Assembly: GCF_006345805.1 (NCBI RefSeq)
Contig: NC_043004.1
Span: 10,168,001 to 10,232,000 of the forward strand
DNA: 64,000 bases
Source: Octopus sinensis
Lineage: Eukaryota
Reading direction: 5' to 3'
The notes beneath the pieces were generated by a model that saw only the letters and a list, made by a program, of their open reading frames with translations, did no database searches and was not told where the DNA came from. A program made the position numbers and the translations under genes. Shown piece after piece: positions 1,598 through 62,039 of this stretch. How positions within the stretch are numbered: position 1 is the stretch's first letter; each line of letters begins with the position of its first letter.

Positions 1598-2455
<858 letters not shown>

Positions 2456-2457
2456 AA

Positions 2458-2955
2458 TAAGGCGGTGAGCTGGCAGAATCGTTAGCACGCTGTACAAAAT
2501 GCTTAGCAATATTTCACCTATCACTACAAATATATGAAAAGACAATGCTCATTATTATATTAGGAGATTATACATACATTTTAACACTTTATAGTATACT
2601 TACATATATACATAATTCTCTATATCGATCTAAAACAACAGGATTACCAAAGGAGGACCGGAATTTAAGACCACGATACAGTATGCATTTCATTATAATT
2701 ATAATTTTTCTGTTCAATTATGTTTCTCTACCAAAGTTCCTGTTGCATTTCAACCAGTGTTTCCAAAACGTTTACGTAGTGACTCCTAATTTCGTCAACC
2801 GCAACGTTCTGAGTTCAAATTCCGCCGAGGACGACCTTACCTGTCATCTTATCGAGATCGATAAAATAAGTACCAGTGAAATACTGAGGTCGATGTAATC
2901 GACTAGTCCCCTCCCGCAAAATTTCAGGCCTTGTACCTATAGTAGAAAGGATTAC
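2458..2955 (+). mobile_element. SINE family A (head AAGGCGGTGAGCTGGCAGAATCGTTAGCAC), interrupted by a ~260-bp insert
   Basis: Head at 2458. The body resumes near 2790 (CGTTCTGAGTTCAAATTCCGCCGAGG..GATAAAATAAGTACCAG). Other copies at ~3470-3660(+), 8750-9200(-, two), 24690-24895(-), 48035-48210(-) and 57930-58140(-). Confidence 0.85.
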
Positions 2956-2959
2956 TGCT

Positions 2960-3135
2960 GTGAAGGCGCAATGGCCCAGTGGTTAGGGTTGCAGACTCGC
3001 AGTCGTAAGAACGCGGTTTCGATTCCCAGACCGGGCATTGTGAGTGTTTATTGAGCAAAAACACCGAAGCTCCATGTTTTCCGGCGGGGAGGGGTGGTGA
3101 GCCCCGCTGTACTCTTTCACCACAACTTTCTCTCA
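2960..3135 (+). mobile_element. tRNA-derived SINE family C, 5' part
   Basis: A box TGGCCCAGTGG and B-box-like GGTTTCGATTCCC; homologous to the minus-strand copy at 20755-21025. Confidence 0.75.
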
Positions 3136-3959
3136 CTCTTTCTTCCTACTTCTGTCACAAAGCAGAGGAACCATGGTGTAATCCACTATGGTGGGGTAAA
3201 CTTTCAGACCCTAATCTAGATTGCGAATCCTCTGTACCCGAGGATAGTTCAGCTCTCCACATGTTAAGAGCCACATATACGGAATGAGGATAACAACGTA
3301 GCTTTCACGCCCGTGCAACCGTCAGTCTATCGCATGTGGTGGGTTGATTTTCAAGTTGCCACACGCATTCTTAGTAGCTTTAGAGTAGGCTCGAATTAGA
3401 GATTATTCTTTGTGGCTAATGTCGTGAGTCCTGATTGGAAGAAGAAGAAGAAGAAGATTATTACTACTGTTAAGGTGGCGAGCTGGCAGAATCGTTAGCA
3501 CGCCGGACTAAATACTTAGTGGAATATCTTCTGGGCTTACGTTCTGAGTTCAAGTTCAGCCGAGGCCAACCTTGCCTGTCATCCTTTTGGGCCCGATAAA
3601 ATAAGTACCACTCGAGCACTGGGGTCGAAATTCAAACCTTGTTCCTATATTCGAAAGGATTTTATATTTTGTTGTTGCTGTACTCAAACTTGGCTTCTTT
3701 TTCAGTACCATTTTCGCTGACGTTGCCATCGATTAATCTGCAGGCTTCTTCATCACCATAACTCTTGTTGATGTCGTAGCTGCCGTTTTCCAGTATTTGT
3801 TTAAATTAGTTAAATTTGTCATCAAGCATGACCAGAATAATTTTTACCTGTCTCTCTTTCCTATGAACAAAACAAAAGTTTTTTTTTCTGTCTCTTTCTC
3901 TCTATCTCCAAATATACACACATATATACATATAATATTTATTTTATATATATATATAT

Positions 3960-4053
<94 letters not shown>

Positions 4054-4102
4054 GTATGTGTGTGTCTATAAGTACATATTTTGATATCTATCTATCTGTC
4101 TG

Positions 4103-4169
<67 letters not shown>

Positions 4170-4392
4170 GTTTATATGTCTATCTGCATACATACATGCA
4201 CACACATATACATATATAGCAATACGACTCTTTTGGTTGTGTACAGAATAGAATATCAATAATAATAATAATGGTGTCTGTCAGAAGAAATGATAGAAGT
4301 GTTCCTGAGTTTATTAACGTTTCCAAGATAATGAAACAAAATGGACTGAATTGAACATAATATGAAATGAAATAAATTAATATTTAATATGT

Positions 4393-6804
4393 TAGTTAGT
4401 TAGTTAATTTGGCTCAAAAGCAAATAGCAAGGCCATGTAGGGGGACATGGAGTTAAGTACAGGGTGGTGTTCATGTAAAGAGTTCAGGCCACTTGAGGTC
4501 CAGGGAGGCTTTGAACAAAGCGGTCGTCGGCATCTTCACCATCTCGTCTGGCAGCTTGTTCCACGGATCCGCAACCCGGACGGAGAAAGCTCCTCTCCTT
4601 CGATTGAGATGAAATCGTCGCAGGTAGAGCTTTTCGGAATGACCCCGTAGCCGACGCTCCGGAGCAGGAGTGAAGAACAGCTCTTTCGAGAGGTTACACT
4701 TCCCGCTTATGATGTTGTGGGCGAGAATGAGATCACCACGGCGGCGGCGTTTTTCAAGAGAATAAAGGTCGAGCGTCCTCAGCCTTTCTTCGTAGGACAA
4801 ATTTTTGAGACCATGAACCATGCGGGTAGCCAGCTTCTGGACTCTTTCGAGATGCTGTATGTCTTTGAGGAGATAAGGAGAAGAGGCTTGAATCCCATAC
4901 TCCAATATGGGTCTCACCAGCGTGACATAGAGTGGTAGGAATATGGCTGCTGTGAGCATTCCGAATGACCGTCGAATCAAAAACAGAATTCCGCGCGCTT
5001 TGTTGGCAGCATGGACGCACTGGGCCGAAGGCGAAAAGGAGGAATCCACCAAGATACCCAGGTCCTTTACCTGATCGGTCCTCTCCAGCAGCAGACGACC
5101 CGGCTCGAAATCAAGTTGAGTTGCAGGAGTAGAGCCGACAGGCAGATGACAGCACTTTGACACGTTCAGACACAGGTCCCAATCGTTAGACCACTTCCAA
5201 ATTTGCTGGAGGCATCGACGAAGATCCTCTATACTACCGCGAGGAGCGACCAGTTTGATATCGTCGGCAAATAAAGGGTGTGTTGCGTGAGGTCGTCGGG
5301 CAAGTCATTTATGAAGACTAAGAACAACAAGGGCCCAAGCACTGAACCTTGAGGCACGCCACTGCTCGCACTGGAGACGTCGGACCGCGAACCATTACTT
5401 GAACTTGGAAGGAGCGATCTGAGAGGAAGGCATCAACCCATCGTACAATATCCGGATGGAAACTATATGCTTGAAGCTTGACAAGTAGTAGGCGGTGGTT
5501 TACCGAGTCAAAAGCTTTGGCAAAGTCCAATAAAACGATGTCAACAGCATCACTATCATCGAGGATGCGCGTCACCAATTCTTCCATTACTAGTAAGTTG
5601 GTCAAGCATGATCTCTTCGGCACGAAGCCGTGTTGGGAATCAGTGATCGAGGCTGTGTTTAGGAGGTGGAGCATCATACTTTTCTTAAGGATGGTTTCGG
5701 ACATCTTGCTGATTATTGATGTAAGGGAAACCGGTCGGTAGTTAAGCGGTCTTCGCGGCTCCCTTTCTTGAAGAATTGGGCAGATTATCGCTGTTCTCCA
5801 GTCTGCAGGTATAACACCCGTCGCCAATGACATATTGAATAGTCGTGTAAGGGCTCGCAGATGACCGGAGCCAACGCTTTGATAACCCGTGGGTGTATGC
5901 CGTCAGGGCCGTGACCCTTGTTGACATCGACGCCTTGAATAACACGTTTGACTTCGTCCCGCGTGATGACCAATCGAAGCATTGGAGGTACCGATCTATC
6001 AAATGGAGGGGGTTCACGACCATCATCTTGTTTGAAAATAGTTGAAAAAGCCTCGGCAAATAATTGACTCTGTTGATAAGGGTCCTCAATCGATACGCCT
6101 GTTGAGTCTACCAACGTTGCAATCTGGTTGTTCAAGCGGGAATTCCGCTGGACATGGGCAAAGAAGGTTTTGGATTGCTACTGGCTTTGCCGCGATTTTG
6201 TATTCATAACTGAAGCGTTCTTTCTTTTCAATTTTCACGGCTCGGTCTCGTTGAGTTTTGTACACCTCAAAAGCTGCAGTCGAATCCAGATTTTTGAATT
6301 CAGCCCAAGCAATATCTCTGAGTCGACGTTCTCGTTTAACCTTCCTCGTCACCCAGGGCTTGTGTTTCTTCCTCTTGGGAAGCCCAACGGGAACTGCCTG
6401 GTCAGTCAAACAGATTACATATGCTTTGAGGGATGACCATAGTTCGTCAACTGAGGACAACGTCATCAGGGATCGCCAGTCCAGAAGCGCGGAAGCCTCG
6501 GTTAGAATTTCAAGATTAATTGCAGAGAAGACTTTACGTGGCAGCGAAGTAATCGTGGGCGTAGAAAAAGTTGTGTGCATGACGAACTTCAGGACCGCAT
6601 GATCACTCTTGGCAAGAGGGGCGCACACAGATACGTCTGACACTGATCTTGGATAGCGGGAGAATACCAGATCTAGCATAGATGGCTGCTGCCCAGACCG
6701 ATGCCTTGTCGGATATTCAACATGTTGCGATAGAAAACAATCTTCAGCCACGTCAAGAAGGGCCTGGCCGAACCGGGAAGATGTTGTACAAATTGATGCG
6801 GGCC
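4393..6804 (-). mobile_element. 5'-truncated CR1/L2-group LINE ORF2 (end of APE endonuclease plus RT), frameshifted, with (TAAC)n tail
   Basis: ORFs 6086-6751 (LDLVF..SDH), 5785-6135 (GPDGIHP), 5318-5833 (NYRPVSLTS, QHGF, DFAKAFDSV) and 4471-5163 (KDLG, RRRRGDLI, WNKLP); FADDIKL at ~5252-5272. AATATGT at 4386-4392 and 6805-6811 is a candidate TSD. Confidence 0.93.
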
Positions 6805-7088
6805 AATATGTATGCTTTAAGGTTGAAGATTAAGGCATAATTCCTTCATTTCTTGCAGCTATTTAAAAAAAGTATTACTACTAATGAAGGCAGCAAGACG
6901 GCAGAAGCGTTTGCACGGGGGACATAAATGCTCAACGGCATTTCTTCTGCCGGAAGAGGACGCTTCATGTCACACGTATCTGTGGAATACTCAGCCACTT
7001 GCAAATTAATTAATTAATTAAGAAGGCCATTCAACATAGTCGAACAAATAAGTCCTCAACATCGCAATTGACGGAAATCCATCCTCCG

Positions 7089-9334: not shown

Positions 9335-10095
9335 ACTTGTTTCAGTCATTAGACTGCGGCCATGCTGGGGCACCGCCTTGTAGAAATTTTAGTAGAATGT
9401 ATCAACCCCAGTACTTATCTTATTTTATAGAATGGTGCTTGTTCTATCAGTCCATTTTGCCGAACCGCTAGCATACGGGGACATAAATACACCATCACCA
9501 GTTGTCAAGCGGTGATGGTAGGGCAAACACACACACACGCACACACACACGATGGGCATCTTTCAGTTTCTTATTTCTTTATTGCCCACAAGGGGCTAAA
9601 CATCGACCCCAGTGCGTAACTGGTACTAAATTTATCGACTCCGAAAGGATGAAATGCAAAGTCGACCTCGGCGGAATTTGAACTCAGAACGTAGCGGCAA
9701 ACGAAATACCTATTTCTTTACTACCCACAAGGGCTAAACACAGAGGGAACAAACAAGGACAGACAAAGGGATTAAGTCGATTACATCGACCCCAGTGCGT
9801 AACTGGTACTTTATTTATCGACTCCGAAAGGATGAAAGGCAAAGTCGACCTCGGCGGAATTTGAACTCAGAACGTAACGGCAGACGAAATACGGCTACGC
9901 ATTTCGTCCGGCGCGCTAACGTTTCTGCTAGCTAGCCGCCTTCCTTTAGTTTCTGTCTACCAAATTCCACTCACAAGGTTTTGGTCGGCCCAAGGCTATA
10001 ATATAATAGATAACACTTACCCAAAGTGCCACGCAATAGGACTGAACTCCGAACCATGTGGTTGGGGACAAGTTTCTTACCACACAGCCAAGCGT
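9335..10095 (-). mobile_element. CORE-type tRNA SINE (family B) with a nested family-A concatemer
   Basis: tRNA-like head near 10090, GGCACTTTGGGTAAGTGT core, tail GGCGGTGCCCCAGCATGGCCGCAGTC..GACTGAAACAAG. Split at TTTCAGTTTC (9561-9570) / CTTTAGTTTC (~9944-9953). Confidence 0.85.
9571..9942 (-). mobile_element. Family-A SINE dimer with the young tail
   Basis: One head at ~9942, internal junction at 9709/9710, and a terminal tail GGGCAATAAAGAAATAA ending at 9571. Confidence 0.85.
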
Positions 10096-13137: not shown

Positions 13138-16100
13138 CTAGCAGCATAGCCCAGCGTTGCCCGGGTATGTAAGAGCCCCTAGTAGGCAACGACTAATCCC
13201 AATGTAGTCCTTTCCCTCCAGGGAACGAAGGTGCATGTGGACGTTGCAATGTCTTGTCTTCACTGGAATACTTCTGTATATACGATGTTCCTAGCTGTCC
13301 GTTTGGGCGAAAACATGAAAACATCATTGCGCCTCCCAACGCGTGAACAGCCCACGTAGAGTTGACCGTGGGCGAAGCACTGTTCGCCCAAATGTAACCC
13401 AGCGACTTGTAGCGTTTGGCCTTGGGATTTATTGATGGACATTGCGAAGCAGAGTTTAACAGGAAACTGAGAACGCCTGAATTGGATTGGTAGGTCAGCG
13501 CCCGACGGTTGAAGGTGCATCCGTGGAATGAAGACGTCCTCTCCCTTCCCACAACCGGTAAGTATTGTGGCCGTTATTAAATGTGGTGCCAAATGTTTCA
13601 CAACCAAACGTGTGCCGCTGCACTGTTTAGGTGGAACCAAATTCCTGATGAGCATAATGGGCGCACCGACTTTTAACTTCAGGATGTGTGGTGGCAGGCC
13701 TGGCGGTTCAAGTGAATTCAGGAATTCAACAGGATAATCGGCAAGCTGGGCGGGGTCTGCTGTCCTATCTATAGATTTGTAGACGTGGACATCACCAGGA
13801 ATAGCTTCAAGTAGCTGGATATTGATGGAGTTGACGGTTGTATTTTTGGGTGCGAGAATAGCTCTGCCTGCCAGCCATATCAGGTCGCGTAAATTGTGAT
13901 GACTGGGAGTCATCCTCTAGAAGGCCAAGTCTCATACATGCTTCCCTGAAGGTGTCGCACAGAACCCCATTGACGGTACGTATATTGGCGAAACCTGTTG
14001 GACCAGTGACCTCATGTAGAAGGAGACGGAGGTAGAAGCATTCTTGCTGGTTTGGCGGGATGTTGTAAACTCGACCCAGGCAGGAGTCAAACTTGACGCC
14101 TGGGAAGCTTTCGACGTTTTTTGCCGGATTTCCGTCGAACCCAGGTGTTTTTAGACCACACGAAGTACGATGGGACCTGTGGGTACAAAAGCGTTCGAGC
14201 GAAGTCATCACGTTGGCATAATTTGAAGAAACCAGTCAACGTTGTGTCTTTAGGGCTGGTGGCTATTTGCTCTGTGAAGTAAATCCGCTGTCCATTTTCC
14301 AAGTGTACAGCAAGCTGCACCACAGCCGGGTGTCTCTGATGGAGCGGGAAGCGGTAAATGCGCCAAAACGCTTCGTTGCTGCTGAGGTACCGGCCAGCCA
14401 AGTAGTTGGACACTTCGTCGCGACTGGTGGTCCTCTGGATGCTGAACATGGCAGCATCGCTGCCTTTGTTGATATATTTGCAGACATATTGTATTGACCT
14501 GATGGAGCTGCAGAACTCAACGTTGACGTGGGCTTTGAATATCTTCGACAGGAGAGGACAGTAGGGGACAATGTAGCTGTTGTCCACTTGATGTCGCCCA
14601 ACCGTAATCGTGCGGCCTCCATTGGCTGGACTCCTTCGTTTGTACAGCGGATACCCATCGCCGCCTGTTTGAGTCTCCAAAGTGAACCGTTTAGGGAATC
14701 CCTTTGAGCAGGCTAATCCGTTTTTGTAGCATGGTGTGTTGGCGTAATTTGGTCCACAGGGCCCGTGTACCATGGTAATGCGGACAATTTCGTAGAGTCC
14801 GGGGTCCTCATCGGGGTCAGGAATCTCGGCGGAAATGAATTTGTCAATGTCATTAGTCTCGATTTTATGAGTGAGCCAAATTAAGATGTGAGCATGTGGC
14901 AAGTCCCTCTTTTGCCACTCGACCGAAAACATGTGGCACCTGACATGCCCGAAAATCTGACCCTTAACTATCAAATCCTTCATTTTGCCCAAATTCAGAC
15001 GGAAAACCCTAGCAACGATGTCGTGTCGATGGGTGTGAGATTGACCCGGGAGGAGTTCGCGAGTGATTTCGTCGCAGCTGGGATTGCACGTGTAGGTGAT
15101 AAAGAGGTCCGGCGGCCGTAAATGCGCACGTAGGTCAAGGCGTCTTGGGTCCTTTCACGCATATATCGCGGTCCTCCCGTGAAGGTGGAGGGTAGAATGC
15201 ATGGCTTGCCGATGTTGCGAGGGTCATTTTCTTGTTGCAAACCGTCACGGAGATGAATGTAGGAGTCGGAGCGAAGTTTGGTCTGATTAAGTTTAATGTA
15301 TAGCAGCCTTTCCGATTCCATTTTTGCGGCCATGTCGACGGCGAACTGGTTGAATAGCTGACGACAACGGGGCAATAAGTTGAACTCACCCTCCCTGACC
15401 ATGAACCGGTATGAGTAGAACGCCCTGCAGGAAACAGTCTTTGATGCCGCAGTAGTTTGATTGGAGGGCTGCCGTAAAGGAATTCCGAAGTGGTAGCCGT
15501 CTTCCCCATAAGGGAAAAGCAATGGATACTGAAGCGCGTCATAAGATCTGTGAGTCTCGCTGATCCTGTGTAGGTTGTTACCACGGGAGGAGATGATTAT
15601 GTCACGGCTGTTGTGTTGCTCTCCGTGTATGACTGCGGCAATTTCGTTGCACGCAGGTGCGTTGAAACGGCGTTCGTGCTCCCCGTGGGGTCGTTTATCA
15701 GCATCAATGACAACGGTGAAGTTTGAAGATGGAGCACTGTCCAAGGCATATCTGAAGCTGCAGACGTAGCTGTTGATATCATGAAGCATGGTTTGGAGAC
15801 GGAGAAGAATGTCTTTGCGGGGAACATAGCTTGTACCCGGTATTATTCCAAGGTGTGCATCAACCTGGTGGTTGTAGTCGGCAATGAAGTATATTTGGAG
15901 GAAAGAAGACTGCTGAATCTCGTCTGGCAGAAGTGACCCAATAAGATGGTAGACCTGTCCCTGCACTTTGAAAGTAGGCATCCAGCCTTCTCTGGGAGGA
16001 ATTTTGGCCCCGAAAGAGGTTATTTGGAATGAGCAGTTGTACTTTCGAATTATTTCAAGGAATTGTGAGGAATCGGGGGTTAAACCCGCCGCGAGATCCT

Positions 16101-18165
16101 TCAGTGGTTGAGGTGGTTCCCGTAGGGGTGGCAGGTCCACTTTGCCAACAGAGCAGCACAAACCAGGTGGCTCTCCGGGCCATTTCTTGGCTTTGCAAAA
16201 CTGGCATACAATTGTCATTGACCCTATCTTGATGTCGTCACGCAAGGAGAAGTTAATTGTGGAGTCGTAGTTGAATGCTAGTGACAACCAGAAAGCGGGG
16301 GCAGGGGTACGTACACCACGAATGATATCCCGACGTTTGTTGATACTCTCAAGTCGAGTGCACCGTGCCTCAGCAGATTCAGATGCACGTGCGACAGCGG
16401 TAGCAGTGGCATCCCTTGAAAGCCTTTCAGCTCTCGCCTCAACACCCTCTGAAGCCCTAGCAGAAGCAGTGTTAATGGCATGTCTGGATGTCCGAATAGT
16501 CCGTTGGTGTGGAGTTTCGGCAGATCGAGCCCTGGCTGTGTTTGCGGCGTTAGCAGCTTGGCGAGCTCTCCTCTGTTGAGGTGTTTCGGCAGCTTTGGCC
16601 ATGGCTTTGTTTGCGGCGTCAGCATCTTGGCGAGTTCTCCTCTGCTGTGATGTTTCGACAGATCGTGTCCTGGCGGTGCTAGTGGCGTTAGCCGCATTCC
16701 AAATGGCCCTTTGTTCGGGGTTCTCGCGAGCTCTGCGGATGGAAGCACAGTAAGAAGCCCGCATGTTTTGGCTGGACTGTTGCTCTTTCGTCAACCTCGA
16801 GCGGAGGGAAGATCTGTACGCTGCGACCCTTGCAAGTCGGGTAGAACGGTCGCTAGTAGTTTCAGATGCCTGAGCAGCGGCATAACGGGAAGCTGTTTGC
16901 GAGAGGCGCAAGGCGGTTTCCTCGTGGGTCTCGCGTGCCCTTCTAGCCCTGGCAGCCGATGCCTTGGCCGTCCGAGGGCTGAGGAGGGTCCTTCTCTTTT
17001 TGGGTGGCATTTTGGTGGATAGCAATGTGTTTGGCAAAGGTGTAATAAAAAGGAACACGTGGGGTAAGTATTTTGGTGGATAGCAATGTGTTTGGTAAAG
17101 GTGTAATAAAAAGGAGCTCGTGGGGTAAGTATCAGAAAATGTATAAAAATGTACAAAAACGGCCAAAAAGCTGGCAGCAATGTGAGTGACAACAACGAAA
17201 AAGTCAAAAGTGATCAAAATGAACAAACGAAAGGAAAAGTTTTTTGATGCACACGACAAAAGTGGTTTCTAATAAACCAAGAGTTTGCAAGTAGCGTCCG
17301 AGGACCGTTAGGGTACGTCAAAAATTGAAGGTAAAACGTTTGGGGTGGTAGTTATAAAGAAAGTTTAAACAAAAAAAGTATTCGAATAACTTGCGGCTGC
17401 AGCAGCTATTAGCAGAAGTGGCGGTGTTGGGGGTAAAGTCTCGAATGTAATTTCTTCCTGGTAGGAATTGGTTGGATCGAACTATCGATAGCTAAAAAGG
17501 TCAAGTTGCGTCCCCTAGACAGTCTGGTTTGTGTTTAATACACAAATTTGTTTGCTATGTGTGCCACATATGATTAAATTAACCGATTTTTTCCAATAAT
17601 GTATCCTATTGGAATAAAAAGGGCTATATAGCTCCTTGGAGCAGACATGATGCTCGTTGTGAAAAAAAAAAAGATTCCTGCCAATTTGTGAAAGATATTG
17701 TCGAAAATATGTCATCTTGAATTTGAACGCGATTTCCCAAAATGGCATGATTTTATCGATTGTTTCTGATGGTAAGGTATTGCATGGAAAACTAACGTCA
17801 GAATTAAGTTTCTTAGGGTAACATTAAGCTTCACCATGAGTTTGGTGAAAATCGATTGCAAGTTGTGAAAACTACCATAGATAATGCGTTGCATAAAAAA
17901 AGCTTAGATTCTCGAGTTGCGTCCCCTAGACAGTCTGTGGTTCATGTTAATGATTCTCGACCCCATGTCGAATTTATCAATTTTTTTCAGAACTGGGGGA
18001 ACTTTTCAAAATTTTCGCTGCGTTAGTTTTGAATTATGACATTGGGCTATGTGTGTGTCAAGTTTCATCAGAATCGGTTGAAAGCCGTGGTCAGGGTGAG
18101 GGTACGAGAAAACAGACACACAGAAGCACGCACAGACAAACTGCCGTTTATATATAGAGAGAAGA
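13138..18165 (-). mobile_element. Helitron (rolling-circle transposon) with intact termini and an internal deletion
   Basis: Minus strand: 5' TC at 18165-18164, 3' CTAG at 13141-13138, subterminal hairpin CCCGGGC-AAC-GCTGGG, A|T insertion with no TSD, Rep/helicase coding sequence inside. Confidence 0.96.
13260..17010 (-). pseudogene. Helitron RepHel pseudogene (STPR repeats, Zn finger, Rep HUH nuclease, C-terminal half of PIF1 helicase)
   Basis: ATG at 17010 (MPPKKRR), CxxC..CC finger, YDALQYPL, LPSTFTGGPRYM, frameshifted PDLFITYTCNP (~15115), EWQKRDLPHAHIL, YVCKY, second frameshift near 14125, helicase motifs FAMSINKSQGQT and HGQLYVGCSR. No Walker A or Walker B. Confidence 0.93.
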
Positions 18166-23777: not shown

Positions 23778-25531
23778 TATATATATATATATACTATATT
23801 ATATATATATATATATATATACTATATATATATATATATTATATATATATATATATGCTATATATATGAGAATAAAATATAATTACATACATATATGAAC
23901 ACGGCAATGTATATCACACACTTATATATATAGATATTAGATATGTGTTAGTGTGTTTGTGCGCATATATGCGTGTGCGCGTATATGTGTGCTTGCATGT
24001 GCATTCGTGTGTATATGTATACGCGTGTGTGAACGTGTGAGTACACAAATGTTATGTTTATATATTGGTTTTTTTAATTTTATATTTGTTCAATAGGGAT
24101 TTCGGGGCCCAGAAACGCAGAGGGGGCGGGAGAGTGCGCCTTTGTTTGTGTGTAGGATTTGGAATGTGCTGATGCAGTTAGTTTGATTAGTATTCCTCCA
24201 GAATTATTATAGAATAATATTTATATGGGATACAGAGACATGGGAGGAGTTATGGATATTCAGAGGAAATGTAACTGCAAAGAGAGGAAATGAAGGGGCC
24301 ATATAGAATGTTAAGCAATGGCTGGAGAGGCAGATGTTGGGCGGTTTTATCAATATAAAACCATTGTGAGATACAGCATAAAACTCCGAACATGAGTTCG
24401 ATGGAAGAGTAGGCCCTGAAGGCCTGTTTTATGAGAGAAATGGAGGGCTAGCAAAATTTGAAACCCATATTATTATCATCATCATCATTATTCTTATTAT
24501 TATTATTATTCTTATTCTTATTCTTCTTCTTATTATTATTATTGTTATTATTATTATTATTATTATTAGTAGTAGTAGTAGTAGTAGTAGTAGTAGGTTT
24601 GGAGATTATTTGCTCATTTGTACTACTACTACTACTACTACTACTACTAAAAATAATAATAATAATGATAATAATAATAATAAAGCTTTCACCTATAGGA
24701 GAAAGCCTGAAGTTTTATGGAGCGGGCCTAGTCGATTACATCAGCCTCAGTGCTCGCCTGGTACTTATTTCATCGACCCCGAAAGGATGAAATGCAATGT
24801 TAACCTCGTCGAAATTTGAACGAAGAATATAAAGAGCCGGAAGAAGTGTCGCTAAGCGTTTCGTCCGACGCGTTAATGATCCCGCCAGGTCACCAACTAA
24901 TAATAAGTATTTACCACAATGAAGACAAAGAGACCATTATATGGACAGGTTAGAAAAAGGTGTGGCGCGTTTATATTGAAAGGGAATGAGAATAAAAGAA
25001 AGAAAAAAGGGGAAGTAACGATAAAAACATTAGATTGTATGTTATCCTTAATAATGGGGACCAGGAATCAAAGCCAGTCCATGAACCGAATGGATCCTTA
25101 ATCACGCTAACTACTAACGTAGTTTTCCTTTCCAAACAATGACCCTTTCATCTGCATGCACATTCGAAGAGTAAAGTCAGTCACTCAGGACATGTTCGTT
25201 ACATTCGCTGAGCTTTTGACAAATTTATCTGAGCTTTGTTCGTCTGTCCTCATTCTCTCTCTTCCTCACCTTCCTCTCCAAGTGGAACTTGAAGCAATTA
25301 AAAAGGTTATCTTTATTTTCAACCGATTGGCTCCGTTGTCACAATGCCCAAGATTGCCAGTAATTTCTCTTTCAAACCATAATCCCACGCGTCCTTCGAA
25401 ATACAAAATAAATTCCTTTCTTTATATTCTCGCTGTTCCATAAGGAATTGAGGTATGAATGAATCTTCACTACATTCATACGGCAAAGCTCTGCTGGGTA
25501 GACATTTTGTTAGTCGGATAATTCCCGTTAA

Positions 25532-25746
25532 CCCTCTCGTTACCAACCCGGCTGAAACTGGCTCTGGCTCTGAGTACAAATGTCTTCATAAGTTTTGAAT
25601 TAAAATCTTCCACCAAACCTTAGTCACAATTTATGTTCTTAACACTAGCTGAGTGATAACTAAGTTATTTTACTAAATACTTTGTTATATTTAAAGTAAT
25701 TGAAAGAAACACAGAGCATCTCAAAATAAATACAGTAACGAAAGGG
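25532..25746. mobile_element. piggyBac-like MITE
   Basis: TTAA-CCCTCTCGTTAC...GTAACGAAAGGG-TTTA: a 12-bp TIR with TTAA-like flanks. Confidence 0.7.
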
Positions 25747-25887
25747 TTTAAAGGCCTGACAGTTTGGAGGTAACTCCAGTGAAATAAAGAAGACTGTAAA
25801 TGCTTTCTGTTTTTCAAATCGAATTCTCTATTTATTTTTTCGCTAGGTGTCATACACCAACACATATCTGCGTATTATTAGCCTTGT

Positions 25888-26292
25888 TGAAGGCGGCGAA
25901 CTGGCAGAAACGTTAGCACGCCGGGCGAAATGCGTAACCGTATTTCGTCTGCCGTTACGTTCTGAGTTCAAATTTGGCCGAGGTCGACTTTGCCTTTCAT
26001 CCTTTCGGGGTCGATAAATTAAATACCAGTTACGCACTGGGGTCGATATAATAGACTTAATCAGTTTGTCTGTCCTTGTTTGTCCCTTCTGTGTTTAGCC
26101 TCTTGTGGGTAGTAAAGAAACAGGTATTTCGTCTGCCGCTACGTTCTGAGTTCAAATTCCGCGAAGATTGACTTTGCCTTTCATCCTTTCGGGGTCGATA
26201 AATTAAATGCCAGTTGCGCACTGGGGTCGATCTAATCGACTGGCCCACTCCCCCCAAATTTCGGGTCTTGTGCCTAGAGTAGAAAAGAGTAT
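25888..26292 (+). mobile_element. Family-A SINE dimer (young-tail unit plus old-tail unit)
   Basis: Single head, junction AGTAAAGAAACAG|GTATTTCG at 26123/26124, ends in the old tail TTGTGCCTAGAGTAGAAAAG. Confidence 0.88.
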
Positions 26293-43979: not shown

Positions 43980-44777
43980 AATCTTTTCGACTCTAAGCAC
44001 AAGGTCCGAAATGTTTTGGTGGGAGGAGGCCAGTCGATTACATCGATCTCGAACAGGTACTTATTTTATCGACCCCAAAAGGATGAAAGGTCAAGTTGAC
44101 CTCGACGAAATTTGCACTCAGACCGTAAAGACAGACGAAATACCTATTTCTTTACTACCCACAAGGGGCTAAATATAGAGGGGACAAGAAAGGACAGACA
44201 AAGGGATTAAGTCGATTACATCAACCCCAGTGCGTACCTGGTACTTATTTAATCGACCCCGAAAGGATGAAAGGCAAAGCCGACCTCGGCGGAATTTGAA
44301 ATCAGAACGTAACGGCAGGCGAAATACCTATTTCTTTACTACCCACAAGGGGCTACACACAGAGGGGACAGACAAGGACAGACAAACGGATTAAGTCGAT
44401 TACATCGACCCCAGTGCGTAACTGGTACTTATTTAATCGACCCCGAAAGGATGAAAGGCAAAGTCGACCTCGGCGGAATTTGAACTCAGAACGTAGCGGC
44501 AGACGAAATACCGCTAAGCATTTCGCCCGGCGTGCTAACGTTTCTTATTTCTTTATTGCTCACATGGGGCTTAACAGAGAGGGGAAAACAAGGACAGACA
44601 AACGGATCAAGTCAATTATATCGACCCCAGTGCGTAACTGGTACTTATTTAATCGACCCCGAAAGGATAAAAGGCAAAGTCGACCTCGGCGGAATTTGAA
44701 CTCAGAACGTAGCGGCAGACGAAATACCGCTAAGCATTTCTCCGGTGTGCTAATGTTTGTTCCAGCTCGCCGCCTTA
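43980..44777 (-). mobile_element. Family-A SINE tetramer
   Basis: One head at ~44777; junctions at 44544/5, 44327/8 and 44143/4 (184-bp period between the last two); the final unit is diverged and has the old tail. Confidence 0.9.
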
Positions 44778-54395: not shown

Positions 54396-55312
<917 letters not shown>

Positions 55313-56029: not shown

Positions 56030-56416
56030 TAGTACCTGACCGATTCTTTATTTTATCAACCTCGAAAGAATAAAAGGTAAAGTTGATATCGGAGGGATTT
56101 GAAATCAAAGAGTAAAAAGCCAGAAAGAAAACGAAAAACAATTCTGCCAGCTCGGCGGAATTTGAACTGAGAATGTAGCGGCAGACGAAATACCTATTTC
56201 TTTACTACCCACAAGGGGCTAAACATAGAGGAGACAAACAAGGACAGACAAACGGACTAAGTCGATTATATCTACCCCAGTGCGCAACTGGTACTTATTT
56301 AATCGACCCCGAAAGGATGAAAGGCAAAGTCGACCTCGGCGGAATTTGAACTCAGAACGTAACGGCAGATGAAATACCGCAAAGCATTTCGCCCGGCGTG
56401 CTAACGGTTCTGCCAG
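56030..56416 (-). mobile_element. Family-A SINE multimer
   Basis: Junction at 56193/56194 is identical to those in the other concatemers. Confidence 0.85.
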
Positions 56417-61221: not shown

Positions 61222-61252
<31 letters not shown>

Positions 61253-61603
61253 CAATAAGCAACAGGATATCTAGAGGTGATGCAGTACGACCGTTTCAAG
61301 GGGCTGCTGTTATTTCATTAAATTAAATGCAGGGCTATCCTCAGCTGTATAAATAAATAAATACAATTTATATATTTATGCAGCTGAAGGTAGCCCTACA
61401 TTTAAATTGATATAATGATTGCATTGTTCAATTAAATGGAGCCACTTGAAATGATCGTAGTGTATCACCTCTGGATATCCTGTTGCTTATTTTGATTTTA
61501 TTCACCTTATTTTGAAGTTGTACGGATAATACCGCATTAGTTTTTGGTGCTTCAACTTAAGTACCTAATTCATTTGAATCTTAATTATTTTGCTTATATA
61601 TAT

Positions 61604-61634
<31 letters not shown>

Positions 61635-61976
61635 CAATAAGCAACAGGATATCTAGAGGTGATGCAGTACGACCGTTTCAAGGGGCTGCTGTTATTTCAT
61701 TAAATAAATGCAGGGCTATCCTCAGCTGTATAAATAAATAAATACAATTTATATATTTATGCAGCTGAAGGTAGCCCTACATTTAAATTGATATAATGAT
61801 TGCATTGTTCAATTAAATGGAGCCACTTGAAATGATCGTAGTGTATCACCTCTGGATATCCTGTTGCTTATTTTGATTTTATTCACCTTATTTTGAAGTT
61901 GTACGGATAATACCGCATTAGTTTTTGGTGCTTCAACTTAAGTACCTAATTCATTTGAATCTTAATTATTTTGCTT
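61253..61976. repeat. Near-identical tandem duplication (382-bp period) of a Penelope-like inverted-repeat element
   Basis: 61253-61595 and 61635-61976 differ by about one base; each unit contains an inverted pair of hammerhead-like segments. Confidence 0.85.
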
Positions 61977-61984
61977 ATATATAT

Positions 61985-62039
<55 letters not shown>

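Follow-up and report, generated by a model that had tools for sequence, protein, structure and literature searches.

How does a SINE come to stand in chains in which, as a rule, only the first unit has a head? The question is raised by a 64,000-nt stretch of the Octopus sinensis genome, referred to here in its full length as the window, where tails of one SINE family run repeatedly into the interior of the next copy. According to the original prediction, a SINE subfamily has borrowed the tail of a sequence-specific non-LTR element, inserts into existing copies of the SINE and resolves its 5' end by homology with the target, so that arrays would grow one unit at a time and old SINE loci would be overwritten. 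We followed these claims in the window and in genome-wide counts taken over the 2.72-Gb assembly.

Head-less SINE arrays in the window

The consensus of the SINE (family Y) is 233 nt long and was built from 97 head-bearing copies. Its length, its 59,913 exact tail-A ends and its target duplications are those of a SINE; a duplication was found in 42 of 67 full-length monomers and measured 15-19 nt in 29 of these. Judged by eye, the monomer duplications start with GGTA or TATA after tail A and with AGAA, AATA or TATA after tail B, C or T often preceding. Older relatives (21 copies), which split into O1, O2 and O3, have the head and body in common with Y and carry other tails. A- and B-box-like motifs were recognised by eye at positions 13-24 and 75-86; ARAGORN gave 0 tRNA matches on the window and Rfam 0 matches on 25850-27500. 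Named octopus SINEs are OK, OR1, OR2 and Twin, and Twin could be this family. In the available text of PMC4758252 and PMC4824008 octopus SINEs are named, with nothing further.

All six predicted junctions are present as exact matches (0.00 expected, from 100 shuffles of the window), and at every one of them a tail is joined to consensus position 50, the fixed internal position that had been claimed. The repeat unit comprises consensus positions 50-233, or 184 nt. We place the joint one base earlier than first drawn, at A/GGTATTTC, because monomers end in ...GAAATA and target duplications start with GGTA. The inverted repeat GAAATA-GG-TATTTC described for the tail-A junction is in the sequence, and none was found at the tail-B junction. 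The features, as dissected against the consensus, are as follows:

9572..9710, minus strand: 9.7k dimer, last unit, which enters at position 50, has an internal deletion and ends in tail B
9702-9726, minus strand: junction, exact match
9711..9942, minus strand: 9.7k dimer, first unit, with tail A
25876..25886, plus strand: upstream copy of the 11-nt target duplication that flanks the whole 26k dimer
25890..26122, plus strand: 26k dimer, first unit, with young C50-type head, body and tail A
26107-26131, plus strand: junction, exact match
26123..26288, plus strand: 26k dimer, last unit, body and tail of the older O3 type, entered at position 50
26290..26300, plus strand: downstream copy of the same 11-nt duplication
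27064..27286, plus strand: 27k dimer, first unit, with tail A, 0/61 changes
27271-27295, plus strand: junction, exact match
27287..27470, plus strand: 27k dimer, last unit, which enters at position 50 and ends in tail B, 3/61 changes
43981..44144, minus strand: 44k array, last unit, older family member that is entered at position 50 and has an older tail (consensus 50-216), 7/61 changes
44136-44160, minus strand: junction, exact match
44145..44328, minus strand: 44k array, unit 3, head-less, 184 nt from position 50 to tail A (consensus 50-233), 3/61 changes
44320-44344, minus strand: junction, exact match
44329..44545, minus strand: 44k array, unit 2, entered at position 17 after tail B, with tail A at its end (consensus 17-233), 0/61 changes
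44546..44777, minus strand: 44k array, first unit, full SINE with head, body and tail B (consensus 1-233), 1/61 changes
56151..56194, minus strand: 56k next-unit remnant, 44 nt only, from position 50 (junction at 56193)
56186-56210, minus strand: junction, exact match
56195..56416, minus strand: 56k unit with tail A

The claim of one 5' head per array holds generally and fails for the 44k array, where entry of the tail-B junction at position 17 gives a further, partial head (positions 17-49). Older tails are indeed present on the last units of the 26k and 44k arrays, and over positions 67-141 the last unit of the 44k array is clearly more diverged than the others (7/61 against 0-3/61), both as predicted; in the 26k array the last unit has 3/61 changes against 2/61 in the first. 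The last unit of the 44k array is probably the original target. Tail B had been said to precede GAAAC or CAAAT, and it is followed by AGAAAC at 9570 and 44544 and by ACAAAT at 27471. The 9.7k dimer lies as a whole inside another SINE, in a duplication that starts with AGAAAC.

Folding of the RNA of 44k units 2-3 was no stabler than that of shuffles (z -0.69) and lent no support to a structured or circular unit. In four public read runs on 25300-27480 reads from other SINE copies dominate, and no record spans an array; no RNA run contains the stretch. One of the runs (X22) has, at 27221-27300, many reads with C at the second G of the position-50 junction and a depth above that of the other reads, which may point to amplification of an array in the sample. 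Elsewhere in the window we noted a well-preserved Helitron with two long ORFs of 757 and 355 aa (14090-17268, minus strand; Pfam Helitron_like_N, STPR) and, at 61223-62015 between TA runs, 2.1 copies of a 381-bp unit that are 99% identical, which is either a recent duplication or an assembly artefact.

Site use by the SINE and by LINEs with SINE-like tails

Genome-wide, the position-50 sequence comes next in 21,003 of the exact tail-A ends. The nucleotides that follow tail A, whose tabulation had been proposed as a check, are non-random: among 96 unselected ends (from the first 100 listed), position 50 accounts for 49, other GG-type sites for 20, TAT for 22 and further places for 5. Site use by the tail-A SINE is thus a preference, with 47 of 96 ends away from position 50, and strict site specificity has to be given up. 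For tail B there are 14,961 exact ends genome-wide, and a related search pattern placed 1,534 tail-B ends at position 17; in the first 30 listed, 4 are at position 17, 1 at position 50 and 25 elsewhere. In the fetched loci, a set enriched for arrays, tail A enters at position 50 in 235 of 249 junctions, and 43 of 52 tail-B junctions enter at position 17. The tail variant therefore tracks the target as had been proposed, but only as a preference for a short motif. Most arrays have 2-3 units, and their last units carry at least four tail types.

The search for an autonomous LINE with such a tail brought up at least two LINE families in our sample that end in a SINE-like tail, T1 and T2. Many copies of T1 are identical, and its intact ORF2 of 1,145 aa has an APE endonuclease, a reverse transcriptase and a C-terminal zinc finger (Pfam PF03372, PF00078 and PF13966); for this protein the closest solved structure is LINE-1 ORF2p (E 1e-52, against 3e-20 for R2). 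The best named homolog of one LINE protein comes from an argonaut (69%). T2 can be aligned to aa 303-1132 of T1, with 59% identity over aa 702-1132, and young T2 copies are 99.0-99.85% alike. Judged by their proteins, T1 and T2 are both L1/Tx1-type LINEs, the T2 sequence covering a part of the element without the endonuclease domain or the 5' end.

The two families differ in their sites. There are 8,671 T1-type ends and, among 100 listed, none is at the SINE site and nearly all are in TATC-type repeats. Of 155 T2 ends in total, 100 were listed, and by eye 95 of these lie at SINE position 50; a second search pattern placed 32 of 46 ends there. T2 is a target-specific non-LTR element with most of its copies at one target, the same target that the SINE prefers, and appears to be of the autonomous type. 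At one locus (L204; G000:C1:118.07 Mb, 2219-5190) a 2.3-kb truncated T2 interrupts a SINE array, whose units continue on either side of it. This is the one T2 with a visible 5' joint, two further loci being too long to display theirs, and a 57-nt SINE piece, longer than the usual duplication, stands upstream of it. The piece shares two variants with the last unit of the array, like an unusually long target duplication.

The last 46 nt of the SINE tails are identical to T2 at 33-35 positions and to T1 at 34-38, with the same predicted stem-loop, and T1 is about 50 times commoner than T2 (8,671 against 155). Since the tail is no closer to T2 than to T1, either family may be the donor of the tail and the mobiliser. 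The presence of T2, with its homologous tail, at the SINE site bears out the idea of a tail borrowed from a sequence-specific element. No T2-type end at SINE position 17 was found, which leaves tail B without a matching LINE, and R4/Dong-like, RTE/CR1-like and Helitron ORFs in the sample had no SINE-like tail where inspected.

Several related elements were observed along the way. An older T2-like subfamily has the tail TAATAAAG, and its four listed copies lie outside the SINE at purine-rich AAAG sites, possibly an earlier target:

C1:145387047: older T2-like copy at an AAAG site
C5:121882876: older T2-like copy at an AAAG site
C7:16537818: older T2-like copy at an AAAG site
C7:115908499: older T2-like copy at an AAAG site

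Sister LINEs at four loci (L072, L189, L192, L268) have AATAAA-type tails after ORF2 that end in ATT, ATC and TTA repeats, which suggests a radiation of families with different targets. The window itself holds an L1/Tx1-type ORF2 C-terminus fragment about 57-60% identical to T1, continuing into a TAT repeat and missing its 3' end (54950-55310, minus strand), and broken pieces of an APE-RT LINE (4474-6829, minus strand; Pfam RVT_1, weak, and Exo_endo_phos_2).

What picks the site can be approached through the base at position 50. SINE heads have G there in 20,718 cases, C in 16,956 and A in 7,505, and the base at the tail-A junction is G in 21,003 cases against C in 178. T2 ends at both G and C and never at A among 95 listed (p 1e-7); among the copies listed, the younger T2 subfamily has 53 C to 22 G and the older one 2 C to 17 G (p 2e-6). 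In monomers, a C50 head goes with TA flanks in 13 of 18 cases and with GG flanks in 7 of 26 (p 0.005). These counts agree with a few read-through bases acting as the guide, and they agree too with a shift in endonuclease tolerance or with several LINE partners. It is quite possible, in our judgement, that the site is set by pairing of read-through RNA combined with a loose endonuclease; we give nearly as much credence to the T2 endonuclease setting it by itself. Tethering to Pol III factors, considered because position 50 falls between the A- and B-box-like motifs, is unlikely.

Origin of the arrays

The age of the units speaks to the nature of the target. In the comparison of first and last units that had been suggested, the last unit came out as the older: it is more diverged than the preceding one in 98 against 24 of the 131 arrays whose last unit belongs to an old family (p 2e-13), and in 35 against 17 of the 62 that end in the young family Y (p 0.007). 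In 61 arrays of three or more units, mean divergence is 0.040 in first, 0.044 in middle and 0.072 in last units. O3 last units (0.065) resemble free O3 copies (0.069), and first units (0.036) resemble tail-A monomers (0.030). A clock based on mismatches between the duplications, in two versions, gave p 0.17 for arrays against young monomers and p 1.0 against free old copies.

Old copies that remain free have mostly lost the site. By patterns of similar length, O3-type copies are array-terminal in 2,133 cases and head-bearing in 1,568. GGTA at positions 50-53 is kept in 17 of 54 free O3-type copies, against an expected fraction of 0.70 from their own background (p 5e-9), and the copies that lost it show varied changes and a body divergence like that of the others. 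This set consists of 70 candidates minus 14 young-tailed and 2 C50-type-headed loci, the listed rows 31-85 with C at 50 being left out. Genome-wide, G50>A (7,505) exceeds C49>T (3,205), a comparison that is weakened when taken alone by the up to twofold variation of C>T/G>A among single CpG sites.

Orientation separates two outcomes. The antisense site within the SINE was used 296 times, against 21,003 in sense. Antisense inserts kept their own head in 19 of 30 loci, and by eye a duplicated target is visible in 13 of these 19; they are ordinary nesting flanked by target duplications. Any upstream head remnant was seen in only 2 of 152 sense arrays. Insertion into existing DNA copies of the SINE is supported, because last units are older, no master is shared, intact sites are depleted and antisense nests occur.

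The single head of the sense arrays is mixed. At head positions 30-44 divergence is 0.045 in monomers, 0.080 in O3-ended arrays and 0.114 in free O3 copies (p 0.004 and 0.017), and at body positions 67-141 it is 0.049, 0.056 and 0.087, respectively. Target-type alleles at positions 63/65 of the first unit occur in 7 of 58 dimers against 0 of 60 monomers (p 0.006) and against 1 of 42 control dimers (p 0.13). These values fit a head that is part old and part new, with one crossover within positions 1-66, and together with the separate heads of the antisense inserts they argue for the predicted resolution of the 5' end by homology. Overwriting of the old locus would then be confined to its head. 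Across 100 dimers, head divergence was not correlated with that of the last unit (rho -0.02). Sharing of rare alleles between first and last units is raised at positions 50-58 (4/27 against a null of 0.8) and also at 81-110 and 142-167; the latter means that later conversion blurs the crossover signal. A doubled head that collapsed later is possible and would need to spare the longer 184-nt repeats.

Our preferred reading, which we hold with considerable confidence, is that young tail-A copies arrived at position 50 of older kin, likely by target-primed reverse transcription through an L1/Tx1-type LINE, and that their 5' end was likely joined by pairing of the cDNA with the old head. The LINE endonuclease would nick a loose motif (Y/GGTA, Y/AGAA or Y/TATA). 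A run of four T is absent from the unit, and transcripts could therefore extend into the target; the SINE RNA would read through its tail, and the first few downstream bases would pair with the nicked target. A master at position 50 would in this way seed new copies at position 50, and tail-B masters would seed theirs at position 17. In sense orientation, cDNA positions 1-66 could pair with the old head plus the duplication, one crossover would follow and no second head would form, the outcome being a single head followed by a chain of 184-nt units. Unequal exchange would later lengthen some arrays.

The alternative that survives best is template switching, in which the reverse transcriptase starts on an old-family or tail-B RNA and jumps at about position 50 to a tail-A RNA, the chimera being inserted once and elsewhere. 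It would explain why young C50-type heads cap 18 of 96 O3-ended arrays, why the outer duplication starts with the last unit's own target motif, why head remnants are so rare and why the duplication clock gave no separation. It would not deplete free intact DNA copies, however, and it predicts heads as young as the first body where the heads are intermediate; the antisense inserts and T2 show moreover that DNA copies are targets. We consider it improbable.

A second alternative is a SINE-derived satellite: a junction of single origin that unequal exchange or gene conversion carried from one SINE copy to another, with no reverse transcription at the site. Reptile precedents exist, in the accessible text of PMC10702118, and some variant sharing does lie outside positions 50-58. 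Neighbouring units have two or more rare variants in common in 10 of 70 arrays of three or more units and in 6 of 16 arrays of five or more, against 3 of 4,984 random pairs, which indicates that DNA-level duplication adds units in a minority of arrays; growth one unit at a time does not hold for these ten, the only ones that resemble the long homogenised arrays of a satellite. In the six- and seven-unit arrays at G000:C1:15.417 Mb (L062) and 16.181 Mb (L066), private changes are common to the units, and these arrays are seeds of SINE-derived satellites. The other 60 of the 70 long arrays show no such sharing. Recombination needs no GGTA at positions 50-53 of the recipient, and it accounts neither for GGTA-starting duplications in unique DNA nor for the use of the site by a LINE or for position 17 as a further fixed site. 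Site depletion refutes the satellite route as the sole cause, a role in which it is very improbable, and we keep it as a secondary process.

The weakest alternative, that multimers were retroposed as blocks from dimeric or multimeric masters or as rolling-circle copies of a 184-nt circle, is largely refuted and hardly credible: duplications do flank whole arrays and multimeric transcripts are possible without a four-T stop, but unit ages differ where an Alu-like master would give units of equal age, the tails of the last units fall into at least four types, and O3 last units at different loci have three or more rare variants in common in just 2 of 7,021 pairs, which excludes the dimeric master named beforehand as the refuting case.

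Implications and relation to known systems

Insertion of this SINE into older kin would mean that a SINE family consumes its own older copies, in events that number in the tens of thousands. Head-less arrays raise the copy number, bring units of different subfamily age together and produce chimeric heads, with distorted consensus building, dating and SINE-marker phylogeny as the consequence in such genomes. They also provide natural, countable tests of endonuclease against RNA-DNA pairing in site choice and of 5' joining when the target is homologous to the cDNA, as well as an insertion-based route to seeding SINE-derived satellites. On the evidence of copies up to 99.85% identical and a target fidelity of about 95% in the copies listed, T2 would be a recently active APE-type LINE whose target is a dispersed high-copy repeat. 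We tentatively suggest a three-way loop, in which the LINE uses the SINE that it mobilises as a safe harbour, the SINE, steered by a few read-through bases as a heritable RNA guide, inserts into older kin and overwrites them in part, the C50 variant escapes and spreads, and the youngest LINE subfamily follows.

Joining of the 5' end by homology is a feature of R2, in which the joint is shaped by target sequence from upstream of the site that the RNA carries. R2 is autonomous, has a restriction-like endonuclease and targets a host gene, whereas the octopus SINE is non-autonomous and has its own body as the target. In the accessible part of PMC6795142, read-through target bases at the 3' end of the R2 RNA anneal to the target in 28S rDNA and raise accuracy.

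SINEU and Tx1-Mar of crocodilians (Kojima 2015, PMC4494074; available text) are similar in that a SINE and its presumed mobilising Tx1-type LINE share a target preference, the target is another repeat and the preference is partial in some families (13-90%). Their target is a third element, Mariner-N4_AMi, whereas in the octopus it is the SINE family itself, with the LINE inside the SINE; their tandem copies sandwich a duplication, whereas the octopus units are head-less. Among the Tx1-clade targets given in the same text are Tx1D for Tx1, U2 genes for Keno and microsatellites for Kibi and Koshi; no SINE is among them. APE-type sisters with different repeat targets recall T1 (TATC repeats) and T2 (SINE), a likeness of type; homolog and atlas searches returned no clade names. 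Octopus repeat surveys list L1-Tx1 and abundant SINEs, without such an arrangement in the accessible text of PMC13282606 and PMC8967140, and PMC5786205 gave no match for octopus or Tx1. In the literature covered, which excludes Repbase, most subscription papers and the octopus genome paper, we found no self-homing SINE and no LINE that targets its own SINE.

Squamate SINE-derived satellites (PMC10702118) and blood clam arrays (PMC11481361) likewise consist of one SINE terminus and repeated truncated units, the clam arrays taking the form TSD-(SINE)n-TSD with head-truncated repeats. In the parts of both papers available to us, such arrays are ascribed to unequal recombination and are often long, homogeneous and subtelomeric. 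The octopus arrays, in contrast, are for the most part dispersed and 2-4 units long; their units differ in age and family, and the insertion site is defined and used by a LINE as well. What is new here is an L1/Tx1-type LINE with a SINE-like tail that lies at position 50 of that very SINE.
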